Source of the DNA: a virus
Lineage: Duplodnaviria > Caudoviricetes
Strand: one strand, 5' to 3'
Length of the DNA: 64,000 bases
Virus record (IMG/VR): IMGVR_UViG_3300021400_000761
Span: 24,094-88,093 of that record
Shown: positions 20,437 to 64,000 of the stretch, piece by piece
Position numbering within the stretch: the stretch's first letter is position 1
Layout: every line of letters begins with the position of its first letter
The notes under the pieces: generated by a model
The model's input: the letters and a program-made list of their open reading frames with translations, nothing else
What the model was told of the DNA's origin: nothing
Databases searched by the model: none
Translations under genes and position numbers: made by a program

Positions 20437-23400
20437 TTATTCTTCTGGATCTTTCCATATATAATCAAATACTTCATGTATTTGTCTTGTTGCAGATGTA
20501 CTTTTTTCTACAGTTTTCTTTAGACTCTAAGAACCAGTTAAAAAATTACGCCAGTTATTATAAGTATTAGTCATCATTGATATTGAGAAAGGTGTCCAAT
20601 CTATACCTCTACCTCCGATAGATTCTAAGAAATTAAAATCCATTACAGAAGTTTTTAACAACGATGCTCCTAAAGATAAAGAATTATTTGTAATAGCTTG
20701 TGCTAAATTATCGGCTTCATTTTCATTTACATAACTTTTAGCTTGTTGTTGTAAAGATCTAAACGCAAGTTGTCCTACAATTAACCATACAAATAAATCA
20801 TAACTTAAAGCTTTTAGATTGTGAATGTACGCATCTCTTAACTCTTCTGGAACTTCTTTAAACATATTTTTCTTCATATATCTTATCCCTTCAGGTAAGC
20901 CTTGTATCAATCCTTTATCATATTCTTGTGCTCCAAGTTGGATCAATTCTCTAATATGATTCAATGTTAATAAAATACCTTCTTCAAATCTACCTTTCCA
21001 AACTATATAAGCTATACCAGTATTTATATGTGTAGGTCTTCCATTAGAATCCATATATTGTGGAATTCCATCAATTTCTAACTATTCAAAAGATCCGTTT
21101 ATTTTTACACCAGACGACTATGCATATTGGTTCTTTTTACCAGACCAATAAGTATACATTTGTAATAACATAGCTCCTAATAATTCACTTTGAATCAATG
21201 CTTTCTTTTCATGTGCATAGTATCCATATAATAAATCAGATACCGATTTATAAGCTTCTGATTGATTTGTTGTGTAAGCTTTAGGTAATATATCACCTTT
21301 CTGTATTAAGCGTTTATTTCCATTTTTATCAGTTACTTTAGTTCCTTCAAAGGCCATTTGTTCTACATAGTTTGTATATAAACCTAATTGTTTTGCTAAT
21401 ACTGTATCATTACTGTTTCTAGCTATTTCCTAAATATCACTTACTGATTTTCCATTTTCTATATATTTTGCTACTTTATCAAATCTTTCATCAAGTTTCC
21501 AATCATATACTAACACACCATTCTTTTTACTATGTGCATTTACACATCCATCATGATACATATGTGCTCTAAATATAGCCTGTCTGTTATAAAAATCAGG
21601 TCTAGATGAAAATCTAAAACAAACTGTCTAAAAGTTATATAATAATGATTTATCATCGATAACTCTTTCAACATATGTATCTGGATGCATATCCATATCA
21701 TTTAATGCATAGAATTCATTTATTAACTCAAGAACAGATCTTTCATTCCCATAATGAAACGCTTCTTTCATTACATCTTTAAAAGCTTTTAACATATCTG
21801 ACGATGAAAAATTATAAGATCCGTCTGGTTTTGTTACTATTAATTTAATGTCTTTCCATAAACCTTCAATTACCTAATAGAATTGTTTTAAGTTAAAACC
21901 TAAAGCTAACGTGGAAGCTCCTCTCATTAAACCAGATTTATACGCATTTATTGCTTTATATTTATCTGGAATTAATGATTTATTGAATATTTTATTTTTA
22001 ACGTAATCTTCTAGATATTGTATATCTTCAGTATATTCATGACCTTGCATTATCTATTGATACTATATATTTAATATACCAGCTTTAATTAAAGGTAATA
22101 TATCATTCATAATATCTCTCTATCTATAGGCAAACTCATGTTTTAATATCAAAGTTTCTAAGTCTCTTTCAAAATATTCTAGTCCATTGTCCTCTATTAA
22201 ACGCTATCTTCCTATTTCTGATTCTCCAGCATCAAACATCGTAGTCATCTCCCATAAATTAGCTCTATGTATTGAATGCAATGGTATATCTACAGTTTTA
22301 TTTAAATTTTCTTCAGATTGTAAATCAGATGGCTCTGATATTGGTAATTGTTGTTCTTCTCCTTCCTACAATTCAAAACCAGCTTCTCTATTTATAGCAT
22401 CCTATTTAGCTTTACTAGGTAATAAAAATTTTAATCTAGATCTGATAGCATTTAACATACCTTGAGCAGATATTGCAGAATTCATCTTACCTGGAGTTAA
22501 CGGAACTCTGTAATATCCTAAATTACCAGAATCTCTCATTTTATCTAGCATTTCATCTGTTAAGTTACTGTATCTATTTTTATTAATTACTCTTAAAGCT
22601 AGTTCTAACACTCTTTTTAATTCTGGCTCTCCTTCTAAAGATGGATCATCTAATCTTTTAAATACTAAATCTGTATCATTTTCTACATCGTTGCCTTCTG
22701 CAAATAAAGGCTTAAATAAATCTACTTTGTTTTTCCACAATTTTCCACTAATGTATCCAAAACCTTTTGCTTTTTTTAACGCATTTATAGCATCCCTTAA
22801 TTCAGCTTTCAGTTCCTATATTTCCTAACGTAGATTTTGATAGCCTTCTGTTGTAAGTCTAACTGATTTATTTAAGTTTTCATTTTTTAATCGTCCTGGA
22901 TTATCTATTCTTGTACCTGTAGCACCAGATTTTAATATATTTATTGAATCTAATATTCTGTCGCTGTCTGCAAATTGTTGTAAATAGTTAACGTTACTTA
23001 GATAACTTATAGCCTAATTTACTCTAAAATATAGTAGTTCTGCATCATCTGTGGTATCCCAATCTTTTGGTATTTCTTTAAGTTGTGGAAATTTACTTTC
23101 CATATTAGTTTTCAATTTTTTTAGTTCTGCAGTAACTTCTATAATGTTATCAAACCCTGTTACTTCTCTATCAAAAACAGTTGTACTTGCTATAAATTTA
23201 TTCCATTTTGTATCATGAATATTCGTATGCTTCTTTATTATAGTTTCATATTCGTTAACAAATTGCTAATACGAATCATTAAATTTTATAGCTCCGTTAT
23301 AAAAATTATTTATTTTTAAATTAACATCTTTTCCAGTCGCTTTACTTTTTTCATTACTAAGTTCATCTAATCTATTAAAATTATATATTATTTGTTCATT

Positions 23401-25344
23401 AGGTGCCCATGTTCCAGAAGCTAATGTAGGATTCAATACTCGGATTTCGTTAATAAATTTTCCACGTAGTGTTTCTGGTATAGCATTTAACAGTAACATA
23501 GTTTTCATTATTTCTATATTACCATTCATGCTTTCAAATACCATTTTATTTCTAGATTCTTCTATAACATCATCTGAAAATTTTGCTGTAATTTTTTTCC
23601 TTCCTCTAGCCTAAATATTGTATCCAAATAATACTTTATCGCTAATTTTTATAACATCAACTGCATTCGTATAATTATTTTTTACTAAAATGACCCCGAG
23701 ATTTCTTAATTGTTTTGCAGAATCATTATCTATTACGGTATAATTTCCGTCATAGTATTTTTTTAAGGTCTCATTTATCCATTTGGATGAACCATCTTCA
23801 AACTCAAATACTGGGAAAAGATCAGAATATAGTGTAGGATCTTCTCCAGAAACGGTAGAACTTATAACATCTGCTAATCTATTAGTAAAAACTTCAACTT
23901 TTACTCTATTATGTTCTAGTACTTTTTTTAGCCAATCACGTAATTCTTTTTCAGTTTTAAATTTTTTAATTTCACCTGACGGAGTTTTATACTCAAACAT
24001 AGAACTTGCTTTATTCTTCTTAGCTCTTCTCTAAATTATTGCTGTAATATCTTCATCTGTATATTCGTTTCTATCTACAGCATTAAATAGATTATTTATA
24101 TCATTTTGATAATTAGTTAATAGTTGTTCTATTGGAGCATCAGGAGTAGATAAGTTAGTAAAATACTATTTTAAGGTAGCTTGTATATTAGCAGTTTCTT
24201 GAATGTTTTCTGATAAATTATCTATATAATTATCGTATGCTTTAATTTTATCAAAAATCCATTTACCTTTCTCATCTTTATGAAAATTAGTTAACTACAT
24301 TGGAGCTACATAATTCTACGTACTTGAATTACCAAATCCTAATTGTTGAGTTAATAAATTATAGGCAGATAACTAATATTTAAACGCCTAAACTTTTGCT
24401 GAAGAATAACCATTTGGAGAATCTAATTGTTCACTATAATCTTCTGGTGAAGTTTTATAATCTATAATATGAGTTTTTCCATATTTATCAGTAACTAATA
24501 AGTCTATTTTACCTAATACCTATTGTTGTTCGCCCTAATCGTCTACAAAGTTTCCCCATATAATATATTCTGGATAAAATGTTAAATCATCGTGATCTAA
24601 ATATTTACATAAATATTTATACAAACTTTTTCCATAATGTATTACATCTCTTATGTTTTCTTCAGAAAGTAAATCCTAATTAACTGTATCTTTTATGTAT
24701 TTAAATAACTGTTCTTCAGTAAATTCGTAGTATTTTAACGTTTTTCCATCTTCTGTTTTTGATGTTCTAAATATTTTCTGTAAAATTCCATGAATTTCTG
24801 TACCTATTCTTCCCTAGAAAACCCATTTTTCCTCTAGAATTTTTCTAAATTCTTTAAACTATTCTGTGGTAAACGTCTAATTAATTTTAGATGTATCTCC
24901 ATCAAAGAAATCTACAACTTCTCTTGTTGTAAAAACATGAGAAGCCCATTGTTCTTCTTTCCTTGGAAAGTATCCATCTCTTTGTCCATCTTCATTTATA
25001 AATTCAGGTCTAAATTCTGGAAAAAGTAGTTTTCCAGTTTTAGGATTACGACACCCTGATAAAAATTTAGTAATAGCTATATATGGTGGTTTAACAGTTT
25101 CTTGCTCTAAATCAACATGTCCGGGAGTATTATCCTAATTTCTAGTAAACTTTTCACTTAAACGTCTCTAACCTTCTTCTTTATAACTTTCTATTTTATT
25201 ATCTGTTATTAATTGTGCAGTTGGCTTGTTAAAAACCATATCACCATAAGCACTATATAGTTTATGTCCAGATGCTAATAAAAAATCATCCAATTCTAAC
25301 TCAGAATTAAATGTTTTACCTTTATATTCAAATGTACATGTCAT
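20437..25344 (-). CDS. large virion (ejection-type) protein with PD-(D/E)XK nuclease domain, about 1635 aa (TAG=Gln)
   Basis: Track fragments ending at 25350, 24000, 23544, 22740, 21357 and 21054 share one frame. Motifs GTEIHGILQ, KIDLLV...IIDYKT and Y[TAG]LSAY. Stop TAA at 20437-20439. Confidence 0.8.
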
Positions 25345-26393
25345 ACACAAATTTGTTTAAGATCATTTGATTTCATTAAGTCGGATTTTACATTATTGAG
25401 TAATCTATGTATATAAGTTTCTGATAATAATCCACTAAAATTATTTACTAATCTTTCAGACTAAACTATTTTTCCAATTTCTAATAATGTCATACCAGCC
25501 ATATCATTCATTGGAATAGTTTTAACACTGTAGTTACCCATTAATAAAGTGTCCAAATTTCTTTGTATCTCATAGAATATATCATGAAATAGTTCTTTAG
25601 GGATTTTACTATTTTTAGATGTTAATAACTATGCTACTTGATCTACTAAAACTTCTTCACTAGCATCATTAATAGTTCTACCAATATACTATTTTATGTA
25701 TTTTGAAAATTCAGGTAGGTTCTATACATATTCTAAAAGTGTAGTATATGATTGTGGATTAGTAAATCTCATAGCTCCTACTAATAAGTGTAACATTTCA
25801 TGAATTGGAGAATTTACATCTGCTTTATCTATATTAATATAAATATCCCCATTATATATGAAAGCTTTACTATCAGTAATATGTAAGTCTAAGAACTATT
25901 CTTCTATCTATTTATCAGTAATCATTTTAAACTTAATACCATACTAATTTGCCATCTTATATAATCCATCAACAAAAAATGTAGTGGAATCAGGATCATT
26001 TATATCTAAATTTAATGGCTCTTTTATATCATTATCGTTTGGTCTATCTTTTATCTTAATTATAGTTTCTTCAACTGTGGGTATTAGTTCAATTTCTTTA
26101 TCTCTAAATATAGAATTTAACTTTTGTTGTGCAGTTGTTATATCCTATTCTAATGTAAAATCTTTTACTTTCTGCATATCCACATATTTGGTAGATGTAC
26201 CACTTACTTCTAATTCTTTATATAGGTATTCTCTAGAATTTGCATTTGGAATTTCATCTAAATATGGATCTCTACCATACTATTCTCTAAAAGATCCTAC
26301 AAAGTTTTTTAATGTCTCATTTTCAGAAGAGATACCAGATCTCTTTGACAAGATCTGGTATTCTCTATCATTCGGTAAAATACAATAACTCAT
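25341..26393 (-). CDS. zincin-like metallopeptidase domain protein, 350 aa (TAG=Gln)
   Basis: MSYCILP... start; HEMLH at 25788-25802; downstream EEVLV; ends KQICV-TGA. Confidence 0.78.
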
Positions 26394-26394
26394 A

Positions 26395-29300
26395 TTAACA
26401 AGGTTTCTATGATCCGTCTATTAAAGCATATAAAACATCTAAATCTATAACTGGAACATACTTTCCTGATTTAGAATCATATCTTGCTTTAGCATTTACT
26501 TCTATTTCTGCTCCCTTACCTATAGTAAATATAAATTTGGTTCTTCCTTTCTATGTTACCCGTTCAACTTTTTGTACCTTTTTTAATTTACTCATGTAAC
26601 CAGGTGTTGAAAAATTTAAAGTGAATCCCCATTCATCTGAAAGATTGCCTCTACTATTTTTTAATTCATATTTATCTACATCTAAGCCTATTTCCTATGC
26701 TTGTTCAGATCTCATTTGTAATTCTTTTGGAGGAATCAAAGCATAAAGATTATGTGCATGGTTATACATATCTATTTCCCAATAAGCTTTTAAACCTTTA
26801 GCTTCTGCTTGTTGTCTAGTGGCTGTTGGAGCAAATGTCATAACAGAATTTTCTGTATAATCTGTACTCTATGTACGACCTAAGAACGCATGATATTCTC
26901 TGATTCTTGGAAGATCATTTATTAATCTATTAAAGACCGGAGTTAAAGAATTTTTTAAGGTTCTATTATTGTATAATATTAAGTTATAATACCAGAATAA
27001 ATCTCCTAAATTATATTTCTATCCGTTTATAGTATAAGTCTTATCTTTTAGTTTTCTAAATCCATCTGATACTTTAGCTAATTGTACTATTTCAGCATCA
27101 TTTTTAGGTATAGCTTCTATATCTAATCTATACGCTTGCTAAAAAGTTTTATTAGGAGTTATACTTAACATAGTAGGTAATAAGCTTTTAACAAATTCGT
27201 TATTTGAATAATTTATTTGAGTACCTATTCCTCTATTAAATCTTAAATCCGGAATTAATATTTCATTCATAAATTTTACGAACAGAAAATTATCTACATC
27301 TGAGCCTAACTTAATTTTTTTTGAAAATTCAAGTACATTAGAATCTAAAGAATACATAATGGGTACTTCCATTTCATAATTATCATTTATCAAATAATCA
27401 TTTATTCTATCACGTAATAAACTAGCTTGAAAAGCATTCACCGTATCGTCTTCCACTTTTCCTACAAATTTTTTAAGATCGTTAAATCCTTTTTCATATA
27501 ATAATTTATATGTAGATGATAAACTTAGAGCTTTGTGCTAAATATATAAGGCATCAAAATAGCTCTAATAATGTTTTAATGAATTTATTACATTGAATAT
27601 ATTAAAAGAAACTTTTTTTGTTTTCTCATATCTTTGTGCAACATCGGATCTATATCTTTTACTACTTAAATACGATTCAACATTTATTTCTTGTTTCTTT
27701 CCGTTTTCATCTTGTGTTGATCCAGCTCTCTACAAATTATATAAGAAATTAAGGATATCTCTAGTATTTGTTTTTAAGCCTTGATTCAAACCTAACCAAC
27801 CTCTAAGAGTAGACAATTCTTGCTAACCAATAAATAAAGTATTAATAGCTTTATATAATGGTGATTTTATATCTACTATTTCAGTTATGGTTTTAACATC
27901 TCCATCTACAGAAATATCTCTATGACGTTCCTCTGTTCCTAATGAAATAGTATCATTATATATTATTTCTAATTCTTTTCTCTTCTTTTTTATTATATCT
28001 CTATATCTATATAATGCATTTTTAACAGAATAGTCAATTTGTTTACTTTCATTTAAGTAATTTAATAATTCTGATAATAAAGATTCAAATTCTTTTATTT
28101 GAGATAGAGATTTAAAACTTCCAGGTTTAACGTGAACTTCCTATTTTTTAGTAGTTCCATCTTTGTCTTGAACTTCATGAATTTCTTTCTTTGCAATATA
28201 GTATGTATGTAATCTATTATCGTATCCTACTGTTAATTCATTTGCAAATTTACGTTCTTTTGGAGCTTTTCTTAATTGTTGCTAAAGATAATATAAAGCA
28301 GAATTTATTGATCTAAACTCTCCGTTTTCATCCATCATATCTTTTTGTCGGGCGTCAATACTTTCTCGTCTTTCATTATCTCTAATTCTAACTTCAAAAT
28401 CTTTAAAATTCGGAATTTCTTTTATTTTTTGTAATGCTGCCATTGGATCCATAAGTCCGACTCTATTTAAATATATATCATCTGTCATATAAGATAATAA
28501 TATTTTTGCAGTTTGAGAGGTTAATATTTTTGAAACTTCTTCCTATGGAATACCTACATAAGCAGCATAAAGATACATTCCCATGAAATCTGGATTTGCA
28601 TTTAATTCACCTAATTTTAATTCTTTTGCATTATCGACTGCAAGAGAAACCCATGCTGATACTGTATCTCTAGTATCTACATTATTTCTAGCTTCTAAGA
28701 CTATTTGTTTTAAATTTTCAGGAAGTTTATTAATATCTAACCCAGATAATTGAGTTGCATTCTGTGATCTGTATACTATTTCTTTTAATTCTTCTGGAAC
28801 TTTATTTAAATCAAGATCAATACTAGATAATAAACCATAAGTTTTACCTAAAAATTCTATAGGTTTTATTATGTCTTCCCAATTTTTAGGATTTTTCCAA
28901 TCTTCTGTTGACTAAAGTTTTTTAACTTTTCTACTATAATAATATAGTAATGCATTATATGTTTTTACACCAATAGATGCAGCAACACCAACGCCATCTT
29001 TGCCTGTCATTACATTTGTTAATTCGTTAGATTTTGCTGATTCATCTCCTGGTAAATTTTTATGATTTCTAAAAAAGTTAGCAATTAAAGTTTTACTAGC
29101 AACACTTTTTAATGCTTCTGATGCATCATCAATCGGTGTTGTAGATCGCAATAAATTTTTAGGAGATTTTGAAATATAACATGACCAATGAACAACAAAG
29201 TTTTTTAAAGCATCTTCTGCTGTATCAGAATTTACTTTAGATAAATATCTATGATGTCTATTATATATTTCAATTAAATCAGAATACTTCTTTTTTAATT

Positions 29301-32300
29301 TTCCGTCTTTTAGATATTTAGAATCTAATTTAGTAACATCATAGGACATACTAACAAATTCTTCAGATAATAATTCTGATAACAATTTTAAATTATCTGG
29401 ATTAGATTCTATATCATATCTAATTTTACCTTTATTTAAGTTTCGTATATTATATTTCAATGAAGTGTATTTATCTAGTACATCTAAAATAGAACTTTCA
29501 AAACCTCTTGTAGCTGTACCTTCTTTTATTGTAAACACGTTACTTAATACAGGTAGCGGTAGATTTAATGAAGCATTCATTGTTTGTTCAGAACTTAAAT
29601 CAAAGAAAGGACTCCATCCAATAAATTTTCCAGATTTGTCTAGAGTGTATTCTAGGAATGTAGCTTTATCTACATCATAATCACTACCTTGTAAAAATAT
29701 CTACATATGATTTACATATGCATTATTTTTTCCATCTACAAAATCTGCAATATCCATTGTCATAAATGAAGACATACCTTGTGCAGGAATACGTGCTACA
29801 AGCGTTTCTAAGGATTTTTTAAATGAATTATATTGTTCGTCACTCTATTTTTTAAGTTTATATAGAACTTTATTTAATTCTTTAATATCTAAATCTGGAA
29901 TCTTGCCATTAAGTTGTAGCTAATCCTATAATATTCCAACTTCTAACTCAAACTAATCTCTATCAACTAATTTATCTTCTAATAACTCTGAACTAATGAT
30001 TTTTGTTCTATCTCCAGATATTAGAATGTTATATTTTTCATTTGCAATATACCATTCAGGATTTTTAGTTACAATTATTTGAGAATCACCATATTGATAT
30101 ATTAAATCCTATTCACTACTTAATTCCTATATACGATTATTTGCATCATCTATTTGATATACATGTTTATTACCATTTATAGTTTCTACTTCATAATCTA
30201 TTGGTAAGAACGTATAGTCAGGTTGATTTTGTAAATCATCTGAAGTAATATATATGTGTTTCCCGTTAAATCTTTTTAAAGCATACGAATAATGTTTTCC
30301 ACCTATATCAGATATAATATTTTTTAAATTTCTAGTTAAGAACCAATTCTTATCATTTAATATTTCTGGTACAGATACACCTTTTGGTAAACCTAATTGA
30401 CTAGCGTGTACTGATGGTAGAATTGCCTAATAATTCTAAATCTATATTGAAGATTTGTCTAATTTAATTTTTTTATAATGTTCACTAGAATCAAAAATAT
30501 AATGATACTATTCGTTATCTCCTTCTGTTGATATTGATGCCCAACCTTCTTCAAATAGCTATCTCCATATTTTTATTTCATTTTGATCCATTTGTCCAAC
30601 ATTAGCTGAAATCAAATTGGATTGTTTCTTCAATAGTTCTAAACCTAGCGCTATTACTAAATTTTTATCGTATATAGGATCTGATAAATATTGCGAATCT
30701 CCGCGTTTTTCTATTTCTACAACTTGTCTAATATTATTATTAGTGAAATTTAATTCATATAAGTTTGTTTCAGGATTATATTGTAAATTAGTTCCTTCTA
30801 CTAATTTGAATGGGTTATTATATTCATTAAAGTCTCTTACATAAACATAATCTAATTTATTATCTGCTAATTGTGATAACATATTTTGCATTATTCTTCG
30901 GAGATTTTTATTTGTTCGTTGCTTTGCAGCATACTATACTACTTTCATATCCCAAATTTGATACTATGTAGCTATTCCATTTTCTCCAGAATCTCTAAAC
31001 AAAATATTATAACTCTTAAGATCAGATCCAAATAGTTTTATTTTTGATATTTTAGCGTTATTAGCTCTATAATGTCTAAGTAACTATTCTGCAAGAGCAG
31101 TTCTATTAAATATATACGATATCGATCCATCAGCTTTTTCTAACTTATATATATCAGTATAAGTAGTATCTGTTTCTGGAAGTTCTTGATAAAAATGTTC
31201 TATAATTCTATACCCTTGACTCTATAAAGTTCTTAATCTGTTATAATCATTACTATCTCTAACAGTTATGTATTCTGTTTCTACATCATCCTTTATCGCC
31301 TTATAAGTTCTTTCAAACTATATAAAAGAAACTTCTCTCGGATTAATTATAAAATAACTAGGATCTGTAAAATCAGATAATTTTCTTCCACTCATTTCTT
31401 GTCCATCTATTTTTGCAGTATAAGTTTTTTGTATACCCCAAGATGGATTAAGCACTGATAATGTACCCGTAAATTTCTATCTAATTGTTTCCGAACTTAA
31501 TTTACTACTAATTAATGATATTAAATAATTATAAACACTAGGATCGTCAAATGATAAATATTGAGATAATTCCTAATACGTTATAGGAGTTTTATCTTTT
31601 TCATATTTATCAATAAGTGGCTATAATAATTTTTTAAGAGACGTTTCCTTTCTATCTTTTATTATAGATGTCAATAATAGATTAGATATTAAATTATCAA
31701 AATCTTCTTTATTGTTACTCATTAAAACATCGATAAATTCTTTATTTGTTAGATTAGACAATTCTGCTAATGCAGAATATACTTTTTCTGTTTCTATATA
31801 AGAATTACTTGAAGATAAACCCATCATAACCTAGGTCATGAGAGATACTTCTGATTGATCTACCTCATGCGTAGGATCTAACTATCTTCCAAACTATATA
31901 GCTCTCTATTTAGTTACATTTAAAAATCCTTCGTGTGTATATGCATCCATAGGATTGGGGTTAGTAAAACCTTTTTTACAAGCTCCTTCTGGTACAGCAT
32001 AAGATACTAATGCATCTTTTAACGGTTGTTGCACATGTAATTGAGTTAAATATCTAACTTTCTTTAAATCTTCTATATTTAAATTTCTAGGTCTTGCAAC
32101 ATTATTGACAGCTGTAACCATTTTACGTAATGATTCTTCTGATAATTCTAATAAGCCCTAATTATTTAAAGAACAACTATTTACTCCTCCGAATAATTGA
32201 TATAAGTCCCAATTGTTATTTATTTTGACGTTTCTTATAGGAATCTAACTTCTTTTTCCATCTTTATTAACTTTAATAGATCCATTCTTATTAACTTCAG

Positions 32301-50884: not shown

Positions 50885-51169
50885 TTATCTAACTCGTACT
50901 AACTTAGCACCACGTCTTGCATAAGTGGGTTCCTCAGCAGGAGCCTCTTGAGGTGCTCCACCACCTTGCGCCAACTGTAATAATGCTTGACAAACAGCCA
51001 TAGCAGCGTCACAATTCTATTCTTGTAATGCCTATTGAGCAACTTGTAAAATTTGCATCAAAGGATCCTATCCACCTTGCTCAGGTGCTGGTGCGCCACC
51101 TTCCATTGGGGCGCCTTCTTCTACGGGAGCTTCCATTGGTCCTCCCTACTAAAAGCGTTTAATTCTCAT
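50885..51169 (-). CDS. small Gln/Ala/Pro/Glu-rich protein, 94 aa (TAG=Gln)
   Basis: MRIKRF[Q][Q]GGPMEAPVEEGAPMEGGAPAPEQGG[Q]DPLMQILQVAQ[Q]ALQE[Q]NCDAAMAVCQALLQLAQGG...YARRGAKLVRVR-TAA. Five TAG codons sit in Gln-rich context. Confidence 0.85.
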
Positions 51170-51257: not shown

Positions 51258-51301
51258 TTATTTTTAACAAATAATAAAAATATTAGATTTATGTATCGTT
51301 A

Positions 51302-51889: not shown

Positions 51890-53331
51890 CTTAAAGAGTC
51901 ATTGGTTGTTGTATCATTATCATAATCATAATTTAGCCAATCTGATTCTGGCATTACTGAATCTGAAGAATTCACATCACTTTTCGAAACGGTTATTCCA
52001 GAATCAGTATTACCATTAAGCTGTTGTCTAGTCAAATTACTATAATAAGCTTCTACTGCATTTCTAGCCCATCTAGCAACATCTAAGGCATGTTCTTCTT
52101 GTTCTGCCTTTAATTTATCTGCAGTCGACTTATATGCTCCGAACCCATAGGCTCCGAGGTGATACAAAAGATCACCTATGGTAAGCCACCACATTGGATT
52201 ATGGCTTGATATTGCGTGTATCTTAGGATGTTTAAATTGTCTAGTGGAAATTGATGTTGATTTAGGAGCAACGTTGTTTTCTAAAACTAGCGCTTGTTGT
52301 GGAACCTTACTAGCTTCATATAACATATTTTTTCCTATCTTTTTGCCTTTTACATCACCTGGTAATTTTTTTAAATCTATTTGACCTTGTTTATAAACTT
52401 CTGTTTTAGCTTCTGGATCTATTCTACGATAATCTCTTACAGGACTTGCCATATTATATCCAACCGCAGGAGCTAAAAACAATAAATCGGTATTATATGG
52501 ATTAAGAACATACTAATCTACAAATCCTTCCTCTACAGGTGTATAAGCCTCCCATGCATTATCAAATTTATAAGTTGGATCTAAGTTAGCTAACTATTTA
52601 AGTTGATTAATATTAAGATTTTGTAAATCAGACGCATCAACTATACTTCTAACATATCTAGCATAATCATCGCCATTAGTTATATTTGGAAAGTTCTAAG
52701 CGACATTTTTAGAATACTATTGCGCATTTGCTGTATTAGCAGCCGTTGATAATCCAAGTAGTGCAGCTAATCTTGCAGCTCCTGAACCCAAAGTAGATCC
52801 TATTACAGAACTTGCTTTAGAAACATAAGGATACAACGTCTCAAATCCTAACATTTCTGGAATAGCTTTACCAAGAGCGGTTATGCCAGCTCTTGCAGCA
52901 GGCATTGCTCCAGCCATCATCCAATTTAGAGTATTTTCAGACGGATCAGTCCATTCGTCTATTACTATACCATCCTACATACCATTTTTGTATTCCTCTT
53001 CTGTAATTGGAATTTTATGAGGATGTACCTAATCTCTATAAGTAACGAATTTATATCCGTATGGTGCATATTGATCAGGTCCAGAACTAATATAAAGGCT
53101 TCTATATAAATCTTGAGTTGACGGTGTAGAATCTGTTGGAGTTTCAATGGTTACATTAACGTTTTCTTTCTATTGCCTAACATTATTCTGTGTAGGTTTC
53201 TTTGTTCTTTTTGTAGTTGAAGATTTTCTTGAAGGCTTTTTATTTGTTATTCGTTGTGAAGCACTCTCTAACCTTTGTCCTGGTCTAAGTGTACTTCCTG
53301 GACCAGTATATATATAATCATTATCAGTCAT
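51886..53331 (-). CDS. hypothetical cargo-region protein, about 481 aa (TAG=Gln)
   Basis: Joins track fragments 52717-52920 and 51886-52482 in frame; contains an Ala/Gly-rich hydrophobic segment; ends TGA. Confidence 0.7.
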
Positions 53332-53342
53332 ACTTTCATATT

Positions 53343-53855
53343 TTATAATTGGTTTTGCTAATAATTAAAGTAATTTTTAATTTTAGGCTTAATTGTCGTT
53401 GTATCTACTTTAGGTATTATAGGAGTATAAGTAACAAAAGTTTGTTTCTAAGGAATCGTGTTAATTATATTCTGCTGGTCTAAACCCAACATATCTATTA
53501 AATTATACTCAGGAAATTCTAACCACGAATCATCTTCTTCATCAAAATGAGCATTTAATGTTTTTAATAGCTATTTTAAGCTTTCATTCTATTTAGGGTC
53601 TGCGTAATAAACTTGTTGCTAACTAGATGTGTTTTGTGTACTAATTGAAGAATCTCTTGTATCGTCTTTCTGTTTATTATTTTTCTTTCTACTTTTCTTC
53701 TATTTGTTAGAAGGAGTTACTGGAACCTAATTTAGTAATTGTGGATTACTTTCCAATCGGACGTATTCTTCTGGTACCTACTAAGACGCATAAAACATTT
53801 GTGGTGCGTCTTTCATCATTTCAAAAATTGCAATTCTTGGATCATAAAGTTTCAT
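53343..53855 (-). CDS. hypothetical low-complexity protein, 170 aa (TAG=Gln)
   Basis: MKLYDPRIAIFEMMKDAP... with a TAATG overlap to the upstream gene; Gln/Lys/Ser-rich; ends TAA. Confidence 0.6.
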
Positions 53856-55678
53856 TATTCTACTGATTCTATTAGGTTAGTTCTATCATCTGTATTATGA
53901 AGTATCTCTTTTACTAAAAGTTTACCTGCTTCAATGGCATATTTATCTTCTTTGTCCTCATGCCACTTTTTACGTAAGTCTTCTATTTTATTAGTAACAT
54001 CAAGTGTGAATATTATTTCTGAATGTTCAATCTCAGCATGTTGTACTACTTCACCACCTTCTTTAGTAATTACAGGAATGCCTTTAGTGGTAACGTGAGT
54101 TAAATCGTCATTAACCTAATCAAGATGATTTAGTCTAGCATGTAATGCTCCTTCAGGAATAACGTTCATTTGTCCACCTTGTTTAAACTCTTCAACTTTC
54201 ATTCCTTCCTAACCTTTAGGAGTTAAATGCTCACGTTGACCAATAACCTCCCATCTGTCAGAAGTTACTGTACCATCACCATTCATAAACACTACAGTTC
54301 CGTTATATAATCTAATTGGAGTTTTTCCTTTAATCTAGTCCTTGTCTAAATCCTTAGGTATTTCTACATATTTACCAGTTGCAACATCTATCGTTTTAAA
54401 TGTTCGTTTAAGTTTATTCCCAACCTAATATTTACTGACAATTCTACGGATCATTTGTCCACCTTTTTTATCTAAAATAGTACTTTTTGCCCGCAACATA
54501 TAAGGTAATGCTGGATTAGAATCGTATCCAATAAATCCAGCTTTTCCATTATATTTAATTACCGGCTCATATCCTAACTCCTAAGCTCTAGTTAAACCTC
54601 GTGTTGGATTGCCATCTTTATCGTATAGCTGTATCATTCCTTCTGGTCCATAAGGTTTAGGCGATAAGTTTTTTACACCTTTAGGTCTACTATACTATTT
54701 AAGTTTAAACGGATTTGCTGGCTTTTTATATTTTTCAACTTTCATACCATGACGAGCAGCACGCATTTGTTGAATGCCACCAGATAAATCTATGGCCTAT
54801 TGCTGAGCCAAGAACGGAGTAGAACCTTGAGCGGCAAGATTATTAATTGTATTAGTATCAACTATACCACTAATTGTATGTTTCATATTCTATGTAAATT
54901 CAGTTAATTGATTTTGTTTCTTTCTAGCACCACTACTAAATAAACCATATTTCTTACCAGCACCAATTTGAGTAACATCTTGTGTAGTCAAGAATCCCTA
55001 GAATCCCCCGTTAGTAGATCTATCGAGTTCAGCGTTACGAGTATAAGTATTAGCTTTTTTACCACCAAAGCCGTTAATGAGGCCAAGAGGAGTTAAGTTA
55101 AGAAATGTTGAATTTAAGATAGCATCAGTTTTTGTCATACCATCAGTACCACCACCGATTTTACTAACAGCATTACCTACTAATTTACCAACACCCATTA
55201 CACCACTAACTATATTACCTATTGGTCCAAAATTAGAAGCGGCTTTTTGAATAGTATCGTAAGCAGTATCCATTCCTTTAGTGATATCACCGTGTTTACC
55301 ATCTAAACCACGTTTGCCAATCATATCACCAATAGCTGATGCTGTATCACCTATAATTCCGCCATAAGAACTTCCAAATTTACCTACTTTGGAGTTCATA
55401 AAGCCTCCTGTAGCTGTATTATTCTCAAAAATCTTTCCAAGTTTGTCAGTACCTTTTTTAACTGCTTCTTTAGTAAGTGAAGTTGGTGCTGGAACTCTAC
55501 TAAGTAAATTATCACCAAAGTTATCTACTGCATGGTACTAAGGCTAAATAGTTAAATTTTTTAACCCTCCACTAGCTAGCTTAGCGTTCTATTGTTTCTT
55601 ATACCAATCTAAGGCATTAATCTATGTTCCAAAATCGAATCCTGGAGATCCGTTCATTGATAAAAACTAGTCTCCCAT
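53855..55678 (-). CDS. crAss cargo protein (Gly-rich membrane-active region, C-terminal VIPEGALHARLNH domain), about 607 aa (TAG=Gln)
   Basis: MGD[Q]FL start; Gly-rich segment at 54998-55399; C-terminus NVIPEGALHARLNHL...KGIPVI...HAEIEHSEIIF...AIEAGKLL; TAA at 53855. Confidence 0.7.
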
Positions 55679-55680
55679 AA

Positions 55681-58600
55681 TTAATTATAACTTTCTTTAT
55701 ATTGAGTAATAATGGCAGAGATAATAGCTAACTAATCTCCAGTATATCTTACTCTAATTCGTACATATTTATCTCTTATTCTTGTCTGTTTTAAACGTCC
55801 CCAATAGTCAGTTTCTATATCTTGTGGAACTTCTATTTCACCTTTAGCTATTATATCTTCAGGAATTGGATTCATAGCAATATTAATTGGAGGTTCGTTT
55901 GTCCAAGTTTCATTCTTTTCAGCATAGTTAATAGATGGTATTTGAATATCCCAATTATCTTCTGCATATTTACAATTACCTAATCTACGCCCGTATTCAA
56001 CTTTCTTATAGAGAATTCCGTTTTCTTCTTTGACTTGAACGTTATGACTCATATAATATTGCTTTAATCTTTTAGCATCAGGTTCATCCACTCCACAAAT
56101 AGCCTGCCATTCATAACCATCTATAGGATAAGCTTTAATATGTGTTGCTACATCAAATTCATTTACAGAATTATCATAGACTATTTCAGAACCACTCATT
56201 GACTGATAATCCTAAGATTTAGAAGTGAGTCGCTGATAGGTATCATAAATTTTATTCTTCTTATCTACATGAGATACTGTTAATGGAAACATTACAGATT
56301 TAGGATTTCTATTAGGATTTACTTTGTCTTTATAATCCTTATCATATGACAGATAAGTATCCTAATAATTATTTGAATAAACTTGTTTAGTCTTTTCCTA
56401 ACGATAGTACATATTAGGTTTCTCATCTTTAAAATCATAAACCTAACCTACCACTTCATAATGGAATGATTCTGGCTATGTCTTATTAGCAATCATTTTA
56501 AGATTGTTGAAGATTTTATGTACATTAGGATTATCCGCAACTATAAATTCAAACTCAAAAGGATGTTGTTCATCATACCAATTACACCAGTTATTTTCTT
56601 TATTGTGTTCCCAAAGATAGTTAGCATCAATAGTCTTTTGAGTTCTTAAATCTCCTTGCTAAAGAGAATATTCATTATCAAATGAATAGTAAATGTTATT
56701 GATGTTACCCGAATAAGAAGGAATCCAAGAATAGAAAGTTGTGAATTTCTTAGTTATTTCATTGTAACATAAATTCCAACCTAAGTAATCATCACCTATT
56801 ACTTTAAAGAAAGTAAACATAAGATCTTGTTTATGTTTGTTATAATGTGATTTTACATTTAAACTAAGTACATTAGGTTTAGTTTCCTATTCATTTACAT
56901 CAAGATTATCTTTTAAGAATTTCTATAACTTAAGGTCAGATAGAACTTCAAACGAATCTCCATAATGCCAAATCTTTTTAGCTACTGTATCAATACCATA
57001 AACTCCAGTAGCTGTTTGAATTACACTATCAGCCCACTATGAGCCATATTCAGTAGATAAAAATCTCGGTTTATCGGATAATACCTTACTAGTATCAATG
57101 TATGAAAATCCAGATTGTGAATTAGTAGCAACGGCACGTTCATTAACTTCAATTAAAGCAATTGCATGTTCAAACACACAAATAAGATAACCATCATAAT
57201 AGTTGACTAATTTAACAATCTCTCCATACTATCTAGTATAATCCTAAAATGCAGTTTTTCTAAATGTTCTAAAGTTATTTATATACGAATCTTTAACTGC
57301 TAAGTCAGAATAAACGATTCTATTTGAAAAATTAGTTTTTAATGTTGGCACTTCTTCCTAAAGGACATATATCTATTCTCCGAGTGATTTTTCGTAAGCT
57401 CCGTTTTGTACATAAGAATCAGGGATTTTATTAGAAACAGCTCCTCCATTTGAACGTAGAGGATAAAAAGAACGTACTTGATTAAATGTTGCACGTTCTG
57501 TTATATTTGACCCATCGGTGCTACGCATACATAAATTAGTTGAACTATAAACTTTAGTAACTAATATATGACCTAAAGCTACAGCATTAACATCTGAACG
57601 ATTTAATAACGTTAGAGCATCTGTATCCTATGTTATAGATGTTTTATAATATATTAAAGATCGAGTTCTATCAGCATCGTTATCGTATTGTGCTACTTTG
57701 TTCTATGTGTCTAATCTACGTCCAGCAGCTTTAGCCCAAGTTTTATTATCTGCAATCTCAGTATTTATTGGAAATGATGGGTCTGTAAAATTACGATTCA
57801 TTGTATGAGCAAAACTACAAATAAAAGCGTCACCTAAATAACATTCAGATGATAACTCAGAAGTTCGTTTACTTACAGGATACCAACTTGAAGCATCGTC
57901 TTTTCTAGTTTTAATAACTTCTTCGTTAGATAAATCTTTTCTATTAGGAATATAAATATTAATTAAATCATAAGCATTAAAATCATTACCATCTTCTTCT
58001 ATTCCAACGTATGGTCCATAAATACCTCTAACAGCCCAAGTTAAGTCGTGTTGATCTGTTTTTAAATCTATTCCGTCTATTTCTTTATTACCTACAGAAT
58101 CACTTATTACTCTATAGTTAGTAAATGGTACTTTTGCTCTATGTCCTTCACTCGCTTCTCCAGCTACACTGGAATAAATTTTTGTTTTAGCTCTAACTGC
58201 GGGTGTATTTTCAGGAACTGCTATTAATCGTGCATCTTCGATTTTTGAATTTACTTTAGATTCATAATCTGTTGTACTAAATATTTTATCCTAAATAGCG
58301 ATACCTTTATAAGTTCCTAAAGTTTTATACTATAATTGACCTCCAGTAAATAACTAATTAAATTCAGCTTGTTTCACTTCATATTCAGGTACTACTAAAG
58401 CATCTGCTTCAGGACTAGAAACAACTGGTTCGTCTTTCTATCTATGCTTATCCTAACTAATATTTTCAACATCTCCTGGTTTTAAAGGTGATTCTTTAGA
58501 CTAGTTACCAACAGTTAGCAATTTTTGAATCTAGGTTGATCCTATAAATGATTCTCCTAATATAGGCCACGCGATACCTTTTTTTTGCCAAATATCATAT

Positions 58601-60627
58601 AAATTATAAATTCTTATACCATTGTGTCTAATATCAGATGCAATATTTCCTCTTAAAAAAGATTCAGTAAACCAGCCTAATTTTATATCGTTTATGATTG
58701 TCTAATCTGTCGAATCTGCGTAATGTACATAGGTATCAGGAACTATAGAACCTCCTAATACTGAAAAAAGTTTATTTAATGCAGCATTTCCATATAAAGA
58801 TTCGGTATCATCAGTATATATAATGGCAGGTTCAGTTTCAGATTTGTAATTTACTGTTTGCGACTAATCTTCTTCTTTTTTTACATAGTGTGTATATTGT
58901 TTATAAAATGTCCATAATATAGGTTTATCATTGATAGTAGAAGATATAGAAGAATTATAATATAATAAAGGTAAATAAGAAAACTTCTAATCACTTCCAA
59001 TCCTAACACCTTGGGCAAGTATTGTTTTTAACCTCTTCTATCGTACAAAAAAATACCCAATTGTATTTTCTGGCAATTGAGATAAAGTAAATTTAATACC
59101 TAATGCTCTAGTCTCACTTAAATTGTAATAATCTTCTGGAAACTAAAATATACCATATTCATTATTATCTAAATTACCTTTAATATTGAATACTGGAGAT
59201 AATGAATAATCAGACATTATATATACAATTCCAAACCTATAATATTCTCCTGGCCAATATCCAGTGAAATAATATATATTGTTAGTATTATAATATCCTC
59301 CTTCAGAAGAAATAATATGTCCATCTCTTAAGTATTCATATTTTGAGACATATTGAAAATTAGTTGAAACATTTCCTAAGGCTTGAGTTATAAATTCGTA
59401 TGAGATATTAGTTTTTGAAAACGTTTCTAAATCTTTATAATACTAGTCCTACTTAGATAAATTACCATAGAACAATATATTTTGATTAATACTCTATGCT
59501 TTAGCTTTATCTATAGTTAAATAGTTAGTATTTATAGTTGTGGAATCAACATCTGTAGTTGGTTCGAATCCAGATATAATAAACGTAGAATAATATTCTT
59601 TTTTCTACTCATCGTAGCTAACTTCAAAATATTTATTTATTTTTTCATAAGTTGTTAAAGCGGTACCACTAGCGTCTGATGAATTACGAGAATAATAAAC
59701 ATAAACTCTACTAAATTGCCTTGGAATATTAGATAAAGTAAAACCAACTTGTTTATAACTATTTTCATCTTCTAGACCTCCGTCAATGCTGAAAGGATCA
59801 TTTAAATTACCTTTATGACAAGTTACCATACTTGACTACCCAACAAAGTCAGACTCATTATCATCTGCATCAGCGAGAGTAAAGTAAAAAGTATATGTTC
59901 CTACTTTAAGGTATCCACTAGTCTAAACGCCATCAAATTTAATATCGACAATGCTATTTACTATTTTATGTAAAGATGTAGAATATTCAAAGTCTTCTTC
60001 AAAATAAATATTTGTATCATTATCTCCAGACCTATCTACTAATTCGTATTCATTATCTCCATATAATGAAAATCTAGTGTTTATAAGTCTTGGTATATTT
60101 TTATTATCTGTGAATATAAGATTAACTGAACCATCGTAAGATTTCTAACAATCTATAGTTAAAGGATGTTCTACATCAAAATTAAGAGATTTAGTATTAA
60201 ACTAAGAGTTTATAAGAGCTGTCGTTTTCTATTCTTCAGATAGATTTTTAAACTCGTTCGCTGTTATATCAGATAAATAATTGTGTAAAGGCTCATATTG
60301 GTATATCAGTTTACCTTTTTTGTTAGAATAATCTGGAGAGGGAAATGTTCCAATTTCACAATAGTTGGTTTTCGGATTAACCGAAAATATATAAAGTATA
60401 CCTCCAAACTCTTTGAGTCCGATAGGTACAAATCCATCTTTTAACTAAACATATGTATCTTTTTCAATTGGAATCTTTGAATTACCTATATCGTTTTGTA
60501 GGATTAGTTCATTTCCATTATATGTAATTAGAGTGCCATTTAAACAGTTAGTTAATACATTATTAGGAGTAGCTAAAGGATGTGCATCCATTACTAAACC
60601 ATCTTGAAACGTATTAGTTGCATTCAT
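55681..60627 (-). CDS. tail stabilisation / muzzle protein (P22 gp10-like), about 1648 aa (TAG=Gln)
   Basis: N-terminus NTFQDGLVMD...NCLNGTLITYNGNELILQNDIGN; internal YTR[Q]YGEIVKL...VFEHAIALIEVNER; C-terminus DKYVRIRVRYTGD[Q]LAIISAI; fragments in frame. Confidence 0.85.
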
Positions 60628-61181
60628 ATTATATCATAATTTTTACTATCTATCATAAGATCTTTTAATGTCATCGCTTTTTCTCTTGAATATACCAACT
60701 ATACATTTTTAATAGTAGCTTGCTCTCTATAATACTAATATCCTAAATCTGTAATCGCTTTGAATCTGACAAAATGTTTCATACCGTCATAAAACACTTT
60801 TGCGGCATCTAAACATTTAAACATTGTTACTTTGTTGACTTTAATGTTTTTAATGGGGTTTACTTTTGTCAATTTCTCATAATATTTATCTGGAATGGCT
60901 AAATAATAATATCCATCCCAGTCATGTTTTTGTTCAAAGATATATCTGATTTTCATAAGTAATTTACGTTTATAATAATGGTAATGTTTAATACCATCAT
61001 AAGTTAATTCACCTATATAAAACCATAAATCTTTATTTTGTATTTGGACATCGAGACCTCGTCTTACTAATCTGAACATAAGACGAAATCCAAAGTTTAC
61101 AATTTTTTTAATGTCGGATCTTAAAACATTAGGATATTTCTCTTGCAGCTAATCTATATAATCATCAACATATTTAATCAT
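60624..61181 (-). CDS. putative IHF/HU-like DNA-binding protein, 185 aa (TAG=Gln)
   Basis: MIKYVDDYID[Q]LQEKYPNVLRSDIKKIVNFGFRLMF (HU-like helical start). Its position just before the muzzle gene fits the crAss gene order. Confidence 0.5.
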
Positions 61182-61621
61182 TAGTAATAAGATTTACCAT
61201 TATTTGCATTTTCAGCTATCTTCATTTTTCTTTTAGTATCAAGATGGATAGGTTTTTCTACAGTATACCCAGCTTTTTGGTATTTAAACATAGGTAAATA
61301 TCCCGTAAAATTAGTAGACAGATAATCTATCTCTTTCCAAAGTCCACGTTTTCTACGTTTTAAGAACTCTTCATCCGAATATCCTTTAATATAAATTTCT
61401 GCAGTTACACCTTTAGCTAACTTAAAATCAAACGTATTACTATTATCTATAATATCATCTATTATTAGCTATAACGCATCTGCAAAAATCATATTCGCAA
61501 GATATTCTTTATGTTCTGATTTTACAAGTTCTTTAACGTATTTACGTTCTGTCTTGATACGTCTGTTGTTAAACGGAAGAAATAACTAAGGTCCATTTAT
61601 AGCATGTCCAAGAGCATACAT
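61181..61621 (-). CDS. hypothetical / second IHF-like protein, 146 aa (TAG=Gln)
   Basis: MYALGHAINGP[Q]LFLP...; two in-frame TAG; TAATG coupling. The IHF call rests on synteny only. Confidence 0.55.
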
Positions 61622-61622
61622 A

Positions 61623-62315
61623 TTAATTAATTGGTTTAAATGACTTTCCGTATATCTTTCTATTAAATGTAACTTTCGCGTCAAGAATCTTATCCATATC
61701 ATTTTGATTAATATATTCAGAGACTCTTGCTGCATCACATAATTGTAACCATCTTTGATTTAAGAGTTGTGCCTCCTAAATAATTGTCGGATTATGAGTT
61801 CTCATACCTTCTTTAAATTTCTAAATATATGCAATAAAACAAGCTATTGCGTCTTTCTATTTCTCATTTACATAAGGTAATCCTTCATCATCAACTTCTT
61901 GTCCTTTATATAAGATTTGGATCGGACCATATTCTTTATCAAAGAAAAGTTGATCTCCAACCCTCTCATATTTTACATATTTACCTCGTTGGTATAGAGG
62001 ATCTTGAAACTCTTTTAATGATTCAATATATGATTCTGTGAATTGTGAGTGAAAATCTCCATTAGGCGTATCATTAGTTACTCTATTCCAATCTTCATAG
62101 AAATAATTAACTGATTCAATCACATCACAATTACAGGGTAAAGTTACTTGTTTGTTTGCACAATCTACGTCTACAACAAATCTATATAATCTTGTATTAT
62201 GTAAACCTATTTTATTCCAAGCTATTAAAGCAATTTCAATAAGACTATCTGAGTCTGTAAGATCTACATCATACATAAGGTTTGCCTACCACAAAGCTGC
62301 TTTAATACTATCCAT
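61623..62315 (-). CDS. conserved crAss tail ring protein (gene 73-like), 230 aa (TAG=Gln)
   Basis: IEIALIAWNKIG...LPCNCDVIESV...KILDAKVTFNRKIYGKSFKP. Confidence 0.7.
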
Positions 62316-63001
62316 TATTTAGGTACTTGGTTATTAGGTTGCTAAGGTTGTAATAACTATTTATAATAATAAAGCTTCTTTTTAGTTATTCTTTCCTTAA
62401 TTTCTGCATCTAAGAAAGACATATTGTTCATATCTGCATCGCATTCGCATCCAAATTTACTAAGTTGTCGTTCATCTTTAAATACACCAATCACTGTAAC
62501 ACGTTTAATAAAAGGTGCATTAAATACCCAACAATCACACATTCCATTTTCATTTGGAGATACGTTTACATATACATAAGGTTTATCGTTTCCCCACTTT
62601 CTATAACGTCTATAACGTAAATTATTAGCTTTCGTATAAACAACAAACGGATTCTAGAGATCTGGAGAACCTATGTATTCAATACCTACATCTCCAAAAT
62701 CAGTTAACAATATCGGTATTTCAAAATGCATTGTAGGAGTTCCTCCCCATAGAGAGTTGTCTTCCTAACATTTAGAACAATTTTCAATATCTTTACAATC
62801 TATAGGTATACAAGATATTGTTCGCATTAAATCCTACTTAGGAATAATCCCTTTTAATGTGTACTATTTAATTACTGCAAGTCTTTCTTCTGCTATTTCG
62901 TCTTCTAACTATTCTAAAGATAAAGTTGGAGTTGAAGAATAACCTCTTAAACCTCCAACTATATCATTATAAATAGCTGATGCTAATTTACTATATGCCA
63001 T
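62315..63001 (-). CDS. conserved crAss structural protein (gene 74-like ring protein), 228 aa (TAG=Gln)
   Basis: MAYSKLASAIYNDIVGGLRG...LSLE[Q]LEDEI...KPYVYVN...FNAPFIKRVTVIGVFKD; ends VPK-TAA. Confidence 0.7.
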
Positions 63002-63004
63002 AAT

Positions 63005-63033
63005 AAAAAAGGTGGTGGAATCCCACCACCTTT
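63005..63033 (-). terminator. intrinsic terminator after the capsid-associated gene
   Basis: Perfect 11-bp stem AAAGGTGGTGG / CCACCACCTTT, 4-nt loop, T-run. Confidence 0.85.
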
Positions 63034-63043
63034 AGCTTTTTAA

Positions 63044-64000
63044 TTAAGGATTAGTTTCTTCGCTATCTGTGGAACTATCAGTAGCTGGTTTATTTACTGT
63101 ACTAGCTTTTCTGTCTTCATCATGTTCAAACTTTTCAATGGTAGCTGGATCATGAGTAGGATCGTCATTAATAATACCTCCCTCTGTACCGCCTTCGCCA
63201 GAACGAACACCTGTAACAGTAATGAGCTTTTTATTCCAACCGATGTCTTCGATTGCCTGTAACAAAGCATCGTCAAGTCCTGCACCGCAACCACAAGCAG
63301 GAACAAAGAAGACGTGAGTAGTCTTTGAGTGAGTTACCTCACCAACAGCTGAACCACCGAGAACACCACGACAAGAAATCTAGTGAATAGTGTACTGTGT
63401 ATACTTGTTGCCAGGAATAGGCATTTCGCTTTCGTTGAGAGATTTCCAGCGGAAGTTCTCCATAGTAGGAAGACGAAGATCTTTAAGCAACTCTTCATAA
63501 GTACCAAAGCCATTTACACCCTGATAAGCGTGGATAAACTCTTTCTCAGATTTCCAGACAGGTTGCTTAGAAGTATCACAGGTGTTTTCACCCTCATAAC
63601 AATCGAGTTCAGTAAGTTCGTCAACTGTTATCCAACCACCTTCACGATAGGTGCAACAATCAGAAATTTCAGGAACATAAACCTTTAGCTGAGCTTCTGT
63701 GAACCAACCATAGTTGTCATTTTCAAAGATTAAGTTATCACCATCATAAGAAACTTTTAGATAAACATCACCATAAAGACGGATAATCTTATTGATCATC
63801 TTAGAAATCTTTTCAGCGGTATTCTATTTATTTGTCCATTCATAATGGAAATCCTTACCTTTGAAAACAAAATCATTACTATAGAAAGAATTGTTGTCAC
63901 CAGAACGTTTTAGATAGAAATCTAATTTAAATCGTTTAGCATTCTTAATATCATCATCTGCAGCAACAGCAGCATTAAAACCTGCAATATTAATCTTAAG
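63044..64000 (-). CDS. 5'-truncated crAss auxiliary capsid protein (gene 75-like, follows MCP) (TAG=Gln)
   Basis: Frame open to the window edge. GFGTYEELLKDLRLPTMENFRW...PGNKYTQYTIH[Q]ISCRGVLGGSAVG...THVFFV. Strong codon bias; two in-frame TAG; ends TAA. Confidence 0.7.

Follow-up and report, generated by a model that had tools for sequence, protein, structure and literature searches.

The window considered here is a 64,000-nucleotide (nt) stretch of the viral record IMGVR_UViG_3300021400_000761 (positions 24,094 to 88,093), the minus strand of which carries, from 20437 to 64000, the 3' half of a recoded late gene arm of ~90 kb. The virion arm of this Zeta-type crAss-like phage very likely reads the amber codon TAG as glutamine (Gln), the decoder being a phage-encoded suppressor transfer RNA (tRNA) with the anticodon CUA, whose gene is split by a putatively self-splicing intron and lies outside the window. 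The recoding itself is one more well-documented example: TAG-to-Gln (code 15) recoding of late genes has been published for crAss-like phages (Yutin et al. 2021, PMC7886860; Borges et al., bioRxiv 10.1101/2021.08.26.457843; Peters et al. 2022, PMC9523058), in line with the original prediction made from the window, which held the phenomenon to be known in Crassvirales. The new point is the intron-split amber suppressor, for which support comes from sequence comparisons in two phages.

TAG is a sense codon in the minus-strand arm of the window. This arm contains 17 genes (16 complete and one cut by the window end), with 326 in-frame TAG among 14,383 codons. Internal TAA or TGA, named in the original prediction as one mark of a wrong reading, are absent from all of them, and every complete gene terminates with TAA or TGA. 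The tight coupling that had been claimed is seen at the junctions TAATG, ATGA, and TGATGA. When coverage by open reading frames (ORFs) of at least 100 amino acids (aa) is used as a measure, the minus arm rises from 21% under translation table 11 to 98% with TAG as sense, the control codes giving 24% (TGA as sense) and 58% (TAA as sense), and the plus arm remains nearly the same (81% vs. 82%). Standard annotation had been foreseen to miss or fragment all 17 genes; table 11 leaves five ORFs of at least 150 aa in the 43.6 kb of minus strand. The longest frame, expected to reach 9.6 kb, covers 9,645 nt (26395-36039; 3,214 codons). As TAA and TGA together represent ~8.8% of off-frame codons in the late-arm genes, such a frame is excluded as a product of chance (~e^-296, by arithmetic from the off-frame counts). 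The base 3' of TAG has the same distribution as after any sense codon, and the orthologues in MT835470.1, the nearest record in the phage collection, which uses the standard code over the syntenic arm, are full length and collinear over all TAG sites.

Three motifs in which TAG had been proposed to stand for a conserved Gln, or in a Gln-rich context, were recovered: ILAGDVY[TAG]AG at codon 1540 of 36039-44354, within the Pfam AAA_30 match; KY[TAG]LSAY at codon 326 of 20437-25350, within the PDDEXK_1 match; and KRF[TAG][TAG]GG in the 94-aa gene 50885-51169. The claims on motif III of the superfamily 1 (SF1) helicases and on QxxxY were checked as strings within the Pfam envelopes. TAG density reaches 2.3% of codons in the late arm, with a maximum of 64 TAG in a single gene, for which the per-codon read-through is computed to be necessarily ~99% if about half of the product is to be full length. 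No release-factor or glutaminyl-tRNA synthetase (GlnRS) gene was found in the window's contig or in the relatives; the host release factor 1 would have to be outcompeted.

The plus arm of the window contains no gene requiring TAG read-through and serves as an internal control; the confinement of recoding to late genes, as originally proposed, holds for the minus-strand virion arm in this window. Over the whole contig, 44 of the 82 plus-strand ORFs end with TAA, 35 with TGA, and 3 with TAG. All three TAG-ended ORFs are followed, one to two codons further on, by a TAA or TGA that would still end translation when the suppressor is at work, and such back-up stops after TAG have likewise been noted in other genomes (PMC12386605). 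In the full genome, recoding is not strictly restricted to one arm, since plus-strand genes of the close relative G001 (111733-116526) and of the companion contig G006 described below (62527-63624) carry in-frame TAG. Among those of G001 are genes for a LysM protein and for a YkuD/peptidoglycan-binding protein, with a possible role in lysis.

The pattern of substitution at TAG is that of Gln, and TAG is best read as this residue, in agreement with the original prediction and with the alignment of TAG columns that it suggested as a check. In 212 TAG columns aligned with MT835470.1, Gln is the commonest partner (14.2%, vs. 18.5% for true CAA/CAG codons facing Gln). A likelihood test of these columns, with substitution frequencies taken from the same alignments, ranks Gln best, by 25 log-likelihood units over glutamate (Glu) and 38 over lysine (Lys). 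A second standard-code lineage, from IMG/VR, has Gln at 12 of 46 TAG columns, vs. 16 of 54 for true Gln codons. The standard-code orthologue of the DUF192 gene (51302-51889) has Gln at 4 of its 10 TAG sites; the PDB matches of DUF192 were discarded as uninformative for TAG columns, being distant cellular homologues only. The test relied on relatives with readable DNA, and the database homologues of the muzzle protein were left out because the database translates the window's own gene with Gln at TAG, which would be circular.

Comparison with G001, limited to columns with flanks at least 80% identical, provides the same information at the codon level: the TAG of the window correspond to TAG (48), CAG (3), CAA (2), or other codons (2) in G001, and those of G001 to TAG (48), CAA (3), CAG (2), or other codons (2) in the window, so that 10 of the 14 changes, both directions taken together, are to or from CAA/CAG. 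The 16 late genes contain 34 CAG, 321 TAG, and 358 CAA, TAG making up ~45% of all Gln codons in the late arm, while CAG represents 23% of Gln codons in the early arm. CAG is nearly gone where TAG is abundant, and TAG thus behaves as a Gln codon in place of CAG. In other crAss-like phages, proteomics is reported to have given Gln at TAG sites (PMC9523058).

The original prediction reported no CUA tRNA in the window and placed the suppressor elsewhere, and both statements proved correct. The tRNA search found no tRNA in the window, and no CUA tRNA on its contig, including the remaining 24 kb, the tRNAs of which are tRNA-Thr(UGU) and tRNA-Ile(UAU) only. Running ARAGORN over the whole contig with lowered thresholds or in intron mode produced only noise, the 154-257 calls containing CUA no more often than expected by chance. 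The genome could be closed. Over window 61587-64000 (2.4 kb), the ENA contig L066 shows 100% identity, and it runs 8.9 kb on, still TAG-recoded, and the IMG/VR contig G006 (77,829 bp) matches L066 with 99.98% identity. G006 begins with the last 107 nt of the window (100%), and its final 200 nt are 96.5% identical to the opening 200 nt of the window's contig. Joining the window's contig and G006 gives a circle of 165,615 bp (31.7% G+C), the order of which agrees with that of G001, where one contig runs across the second junction. The recoded minus arm continues in G006 to ~46.9 kb, with 46 ORFs and 223 further TAG. Twelve ordinary tRNAs were found on the circle, none with a CUA anticodon.

The suppressor gene is located in the same minus arm, ~35 kb past the window end, where a tRNA gene with an interrupted anticodon loop, first read by eye, occupies 295 nt (G006 34810-35104). 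It consists of a 36-nt 5' exon ending with CUCU, a 222-nt insert without ORF that separates anticodon positions 35 and 36, and a 37-nt 3' exon starting with AAAACCG. Once the 222 nt are removed in silico, ARAGORN with default settings yields a canonical 74-nt cloverleaf with the anticodon CUA. Only with the junction chosen does the loop have 7 nt, the 5' splice site follow a U, and the intron end with G. Because the intron splits the anticodon loop, this suppressor was missed by ARAGORN and Rfam.

Two relatives provide comparative evidence. G001 carries, at the same locus, a normal, intronless tRNA-CUA on the late strand (94079-94152), the loop of which is identical to the joined loop CUCUAAA. 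G007, a diverged relative of 164.7 kb with a muzzle homologue containing 28 in-frame TAG, and with detectable tRNAs for Arg, Asn, Lys, and Gln only, has a 233-nt intron that splits CUCU/AAA, and the joined gene is again a canonical tRNA-CUA. None of the seven acceptor pairs is the same in G006 and G007, yet all of them still pair, and compensatory changes are also found in the anticodon stem and the T stem. When the G001 suppressor and the 3' exon of G006 were sought by exact match, only their own contigs came up, and BLAST with the split gene gave no homologue in four relatives.

The public run in which the window is best represented comes from an animal gut metagenome of 2013 and is probably the source sample; bovine and goat gut runs share only small fractions of its sequence words. 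Aligned to the G001 locus, contigs of the source sample have 333 other letters in place of 101, and the source-sample contig agrees exactly with the G006 arrangement in three junction measures: 6 mismatches (positions 1598-2000), 8,385 letters (next junction), and ~333 letters (tRNA). Between the G001 (94079-94152) and G006 (34810-35104) loci, the flanks are 91-98% identical, yet every tRNA stem differs; the whole tRNA cassette, and not the intron alone, seems to have been exchanged. An origin of the G001 suppressor as a recent copy of the phage tRNA-Gln(UUG) was considered and rejected, the two not being close paralogues.

Other tRNA loci deserve mention. The same tRNA at G006 57572-57642 and G001 106525-106595 is called Met(CAU) when ARAGORN is run by default and Glu(UUC) when the threshold is lowered, its loop UUUUCAU being ambiguous. 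The split-tRNA scan also proposed a 158-nt candidate at G001 106843-107000, for which removal of a short insert most often gives a tRNA-Leu(UAG). In MT835492.1, a weak match to a hepatitis delta virus (HDV)-like ribozyme (2191-2258; 28.9 bits vs. a gathering score of 44) directly follows tRNA-Met.

The insert is a group-I-like intron that is putatively self-splicing, as far as its sequence and predicted folding can tell. In a search of 701 nt, the Rfam family Intron_gpI was the only match with E ≤0.5; it lies on the right strand, at the right place, and spans the full model, and AAGAAAUAGUC aligns to the J8/7-P7 consensus of the family with high posterior probability. Helix P1 is formed by CUCU and the GGAG of intron positions 13-16, and the intron ends with a G (base 222); P1 and the terminal G are also present in G007. 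Helices P2 (GCAA loop), P3 (6 bp), P5 (GCGA loop), P7 (4 bp), P8, and a 3' hairpin can also be placed. The G006 and G007 introns, the only two full sequences available for covariation, differ by compensatory changes in P2, P5 (5 of 6 pairs), P8, and the P9a/3' hairpin, P1 and P7 being unchanged. A 20-mer from the intron core allowed the family to be found in further IMG/VR contigs: a related intron interrupts a tRNA-Leu(UAA) in a 120-kb phage genome with terminal repeats (L088), in which no muzzle homologue was found, and a fourth copy of the core stands at the start of another contig (Table 1).

Taken together, these elements would operate in the following order. The plus-strand replication arm could be translated by the unmodified host, and transcription of the minus arm would yield the precursor of the split tRNA. 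The intron would then splice itself out of this precursor, the host GlnRS would charge the resulting tRNA-CUA, and only then would the TAG-rich virion genes be translated at full length. Splicing is here predicted from sequence, and charging with Gln and any role in timing are likewise deduced. Several observations weigh against this scheme. With 14.8 bits (E = 0.38), the Intron_gpI match is far below the gathering score of 50, no match was obtained when Rfam was searched more narrowly with the intron, and the assignments of P4, P6, and P9 are loose. The anticodon depends on the junction chosen, other junctions giving other anticodons, and the intron mode of ARAGORN proposes a different junction, with a 9-nt loop. 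The suppressor lies on another IMG/VR contig, one junction of which is 96.5% identical over 200 nt, and the strains may thus differ slightly. The suppressor tRNA also lacks the close kinship with the phage tRNA-Gln(UUG) mentioned above. Finally, a simple order of "tRNA first, clients after" fails, because some of the TAG-rich genes are upstream of the tRNA in the same arm.

If TAG is Gln, the decoding could also be due to another agent, either of the host (a suppressor or a modified tRNA-Gln) or of the phage (an RNA that escaped detection), the split tRNA-CUA being a copy inactivated by insertion. A suppressor is reported to be detectable in only ~40% of TAG-recoded phages, host or divergent suppressors having been proposed for the others (PMC7886860), the Rfam score of the intron is well under threshold, and MT835492.1 is TAG-recoded although neither an intact nor a split tRNA-CUA was found there, split-tRNA scan included. 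The latter record is, however, an unverified 121.6-kb scaffold in a clade of 155-190 kb genomes, and is probably incomplete. An inactivated copy would also hardly keep both exons intact and all stems paired through compensatory changes in two diverged phages, as is observed, which is unlike a dead gene. Moreover, the insert has the U/G boundary bases, a sequence able to form P1, a putative P3/P7 pseudoknot, and a stretch that aligns to the conserved J8/7 core, and related introns interrupt one or more further tRNA genes, the classical U34/A35 site of tRNA-Leu(UAA) among them. Decoding by another agent is thus considered improbable, and the intron-split tRNA-CUA is preferred.

That TAG is sense but does not stand for Gln (Glu and Lys would be the next candidates, and pyrrolysine a further one) appears very improbable. 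In distant alignments, TAG also often faces Glu, aspartate, or Lys, and ARAGORN labels any CUA tRNA "Pyl", but this label reflects the anticodon only. The likelihood margins over Glu and Lys given above, the preferential exchange of TAG with CAA/CAG in conserved context, the specific depletion of CAG, and the proteomics of other crAss-like phages all speak for Gln. As for an arm of broken genes, or an assembly artefact, in which TAG would terminate, it could only draw on the few ORFs that table 11 leaves, and it is refuted by the present results: frames of up to 9.6 kb are devoid of TAA and TGA in spite of their off-frame density, standard-code relatives have collinear, full-length orthologues, 48 of 55 TAG positions in conserved context are kept in G001, and the independent ENA contig is identical to the window over 2.4 kb.

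The features of the window and of the related records are listed in Table 1. The two arms converge on a gap of 186 bp, between the ends of their last genes at 20251 and 20437, in which stands an apparently perfect hairpin, for which shuffled sequences give an expectation of 0.1 such sites. Pfam recognizes, in the late arm, the crAss muzzle, DUF192, PD-(D/E)XK, and an SF1-helicase-like domain, with weak matches to Ring_1 and Ring_2. Ten late-arm proteins have no match in PHROGs, and a PDB sequence search with the helicase region gave none. In the early arm, an RNA ligase (phrog_968; contig 5726-7132) and a PurA/PurZ-like enzyme (phrog_1211; contig 11942-13009) are encoded near the two tRNA genes.

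Table 1. Positions of the features described in the text (window coordinates, unless a contig or another record is named).
Feature	Position	Strand	In-frame TAG	Remarks
Replication/nucleotide-metabolism arm, standard code	1-20251	+		RNR, ligase, PolB (11694-13574), ThyX, OmpA-like, AAA ATPase
TAG-ended ORF	contig 2657-3292	+		
TAG-ended ORF	contig 37661-37840 (window 13568-13747)	+		
TAG-ended ORF	contig 37821-38006 (window 13728-13913)	+		
Hairpin, 18 bp + T run	20386-20427			convergent gap; probably terminator for both arms
PD-(D/E)XK nuclease-domain protein, 1637 aa	20437-25350	-	31	stop TAA
350-aa protein	25341-26393	-	9	stop TGA
Giant protein, 3214 aa, crAss transcription/cargo block	26395-36039	-	60	stop TAA
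Giant protein, 2771 aa, SF1-helicase-like AAA_30/UvrD_C region	36039-44354	-	64	stop TAA
617-aa protein	44357-46210	-	14	stop TAA
1537-aa protein	46207-50820	-	48	stop TGA
Gln/Ala/Pro-rich protein, 94 aa	50885-51169	-	5	KRF[TAG][TAG]GG; stop TAA
DUF192 protein, 195 aa	51302-51889	-	10	60% identity to standard-code orthologue
481-aa protein	51886-53331	-	7	stop TGA
170-aa protein	53343-53855	-	9	
607-aa protein	53855-55678	-	14	
crAss muzzle protein, 1648 aa	55681-60627	-	38	Pfam crAss_MUZ, 3e-32
185-aa protein	60624-61181	-	3	
185-aa protein	61181-61738	-	2	start uncertain, overlaps upstream gene
Tail ring protein 1, 230 aa	61623-62315	-	4	below Pfam cut-off; 58% identity to standard-code orthologue
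Tail ring protein 2, 228 aa	62315-63001	-	7	below Pfam cut-off; 58% identity to standard-code orthologue
Gene cut 5' by contig end	63044-64000	-	2	open frame; 383 codons stop-to-stop on bridging contig L066
Related intron in tRNA-Leu(UAA), 628 nt	IMGVR_UViG_3300045988_121887 (G008/L088), 6916-7627	reverse		split at U34/A35; 3' core matches suppressor intron
Fourth intron-core copy	IMGVR_UViG_3300045988_166862 (L091), 1-190			start of 159-kb contig; then 3' half of another tRNA; 5' exon cut off by contig end

The practical consequence of the recoding is that table-11 annotation shreds ~90 kb of this genome. In two diverged phages, the missing suppressor is accounted for by a tRNA-CUA gene that has a small, ORF-less, group-I-like intron in its anticodon loop. 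One may speculate that intron-split suppressors are a general reason for the apparent lack of suppressors, that self-splicing acts as a gate timing the code switch, as a form of late-gene control, and that the presence or absence of the intron between phages 91-96% identical marks an actively mobile tRNA intron, although this extension is, for the moment, rather doubtful. If such genes were common, intron-aware tRNA searches would change the recognition and annotation of recoded phages. A ribozyme step would then also be found inside a genetic-code switch, and phage tRNA genes would join the known homes of group I introns.

The phage has the features of Crassvirales, with giant ORFs of 2771 and 3214 aa and a muzzle module syntenic with MT835470.1, but its placement in the delta group (Suoliviridae), as originally suggested from PolB and amber recoding, is not supported. 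The window's contig is without head genes (rated 48% complete), and the window without TerL. The likeness to Suoliviridae lies in PolB, which is indeed closest there (~50% identity), and in TAG recoding, which also occurs in this family (the TerL of cr4_1 has five in-frame TAG); PolB is the sole support for the delta placement. The TerL of G001 shares 33% identity with that of the Suoliviridae cr1_1, which itself shares 60-66% with other Suoliviridae subfamilies and 35% with Steigviridae; the portal is ~22% identical to that of any classified crAss phage; and the genome has 165.6 kb, vs. about 90-105 kb. Contigs with muzzle homologues reach 155-191 kb, an identical muzzle protein being encoded on a contig of 116.8 kb, and the nearest named records are unclassified "Bacteriophage sp.".

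With its size, its large set of tRNAs, its introns, and close relatives that differ in their code, the phage fits the Zeta group of crAss-like phages (PMC7886860; PMC12386605). Its genome size is within the reported 145-192 kb, and PolB, more than 10 tRNAs (12 + 1 here), amber suppression by means of a CTA suppressor, introns of group I (group-I-like here), relatives some of which keep the standard code while others are TAG-recoded, and unrecoded genes that seldom end with TAG, and then with a nearby TAA/TGA back-up, are shared traits. The published Zeta introns, in contrast, are located in protein genes and were found via their endonuclease ORFs, whereas the present one is ORF-less and interrupts a tRNA gene. 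With the published code-15 crAss-like phages in general, the likeness extends to TAG being used only in the structural/late block, the replication block keeping the standard code, to TAA and TGA kept as stops, to a phage tRNA-CUA, and to close relatives in standard code. The recoding itself does not differ, apart from its high density and the length of the arm here.

No published account of an intron-split suppressor tRNA was found in the literature, including the main crAss and recoding papers, within an incomplete coverage, and a 2014 review noted that the phage group I introns then known were all in protein-coding genes, despite many phage tRNA genes (PMC3984707). The closest known systems are the group I introns of bacterial and plastid tRNA genes (tRNA-Leu(UAA), tRNA-fMet, tRNA-Ile, and tRNA-Arg; PMC3984707), which are likewise small, ORF-less, and located in the anticodon loop. 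As in these, the insert follows a U that is paired with a guide G and ends with a G, and a related phage copy occupies the classical U34/A35 site of tRNA-Leu(UAA). The difference lies in the gene, here a phage amber suppressor, and in the site, between positions 35 and 36.

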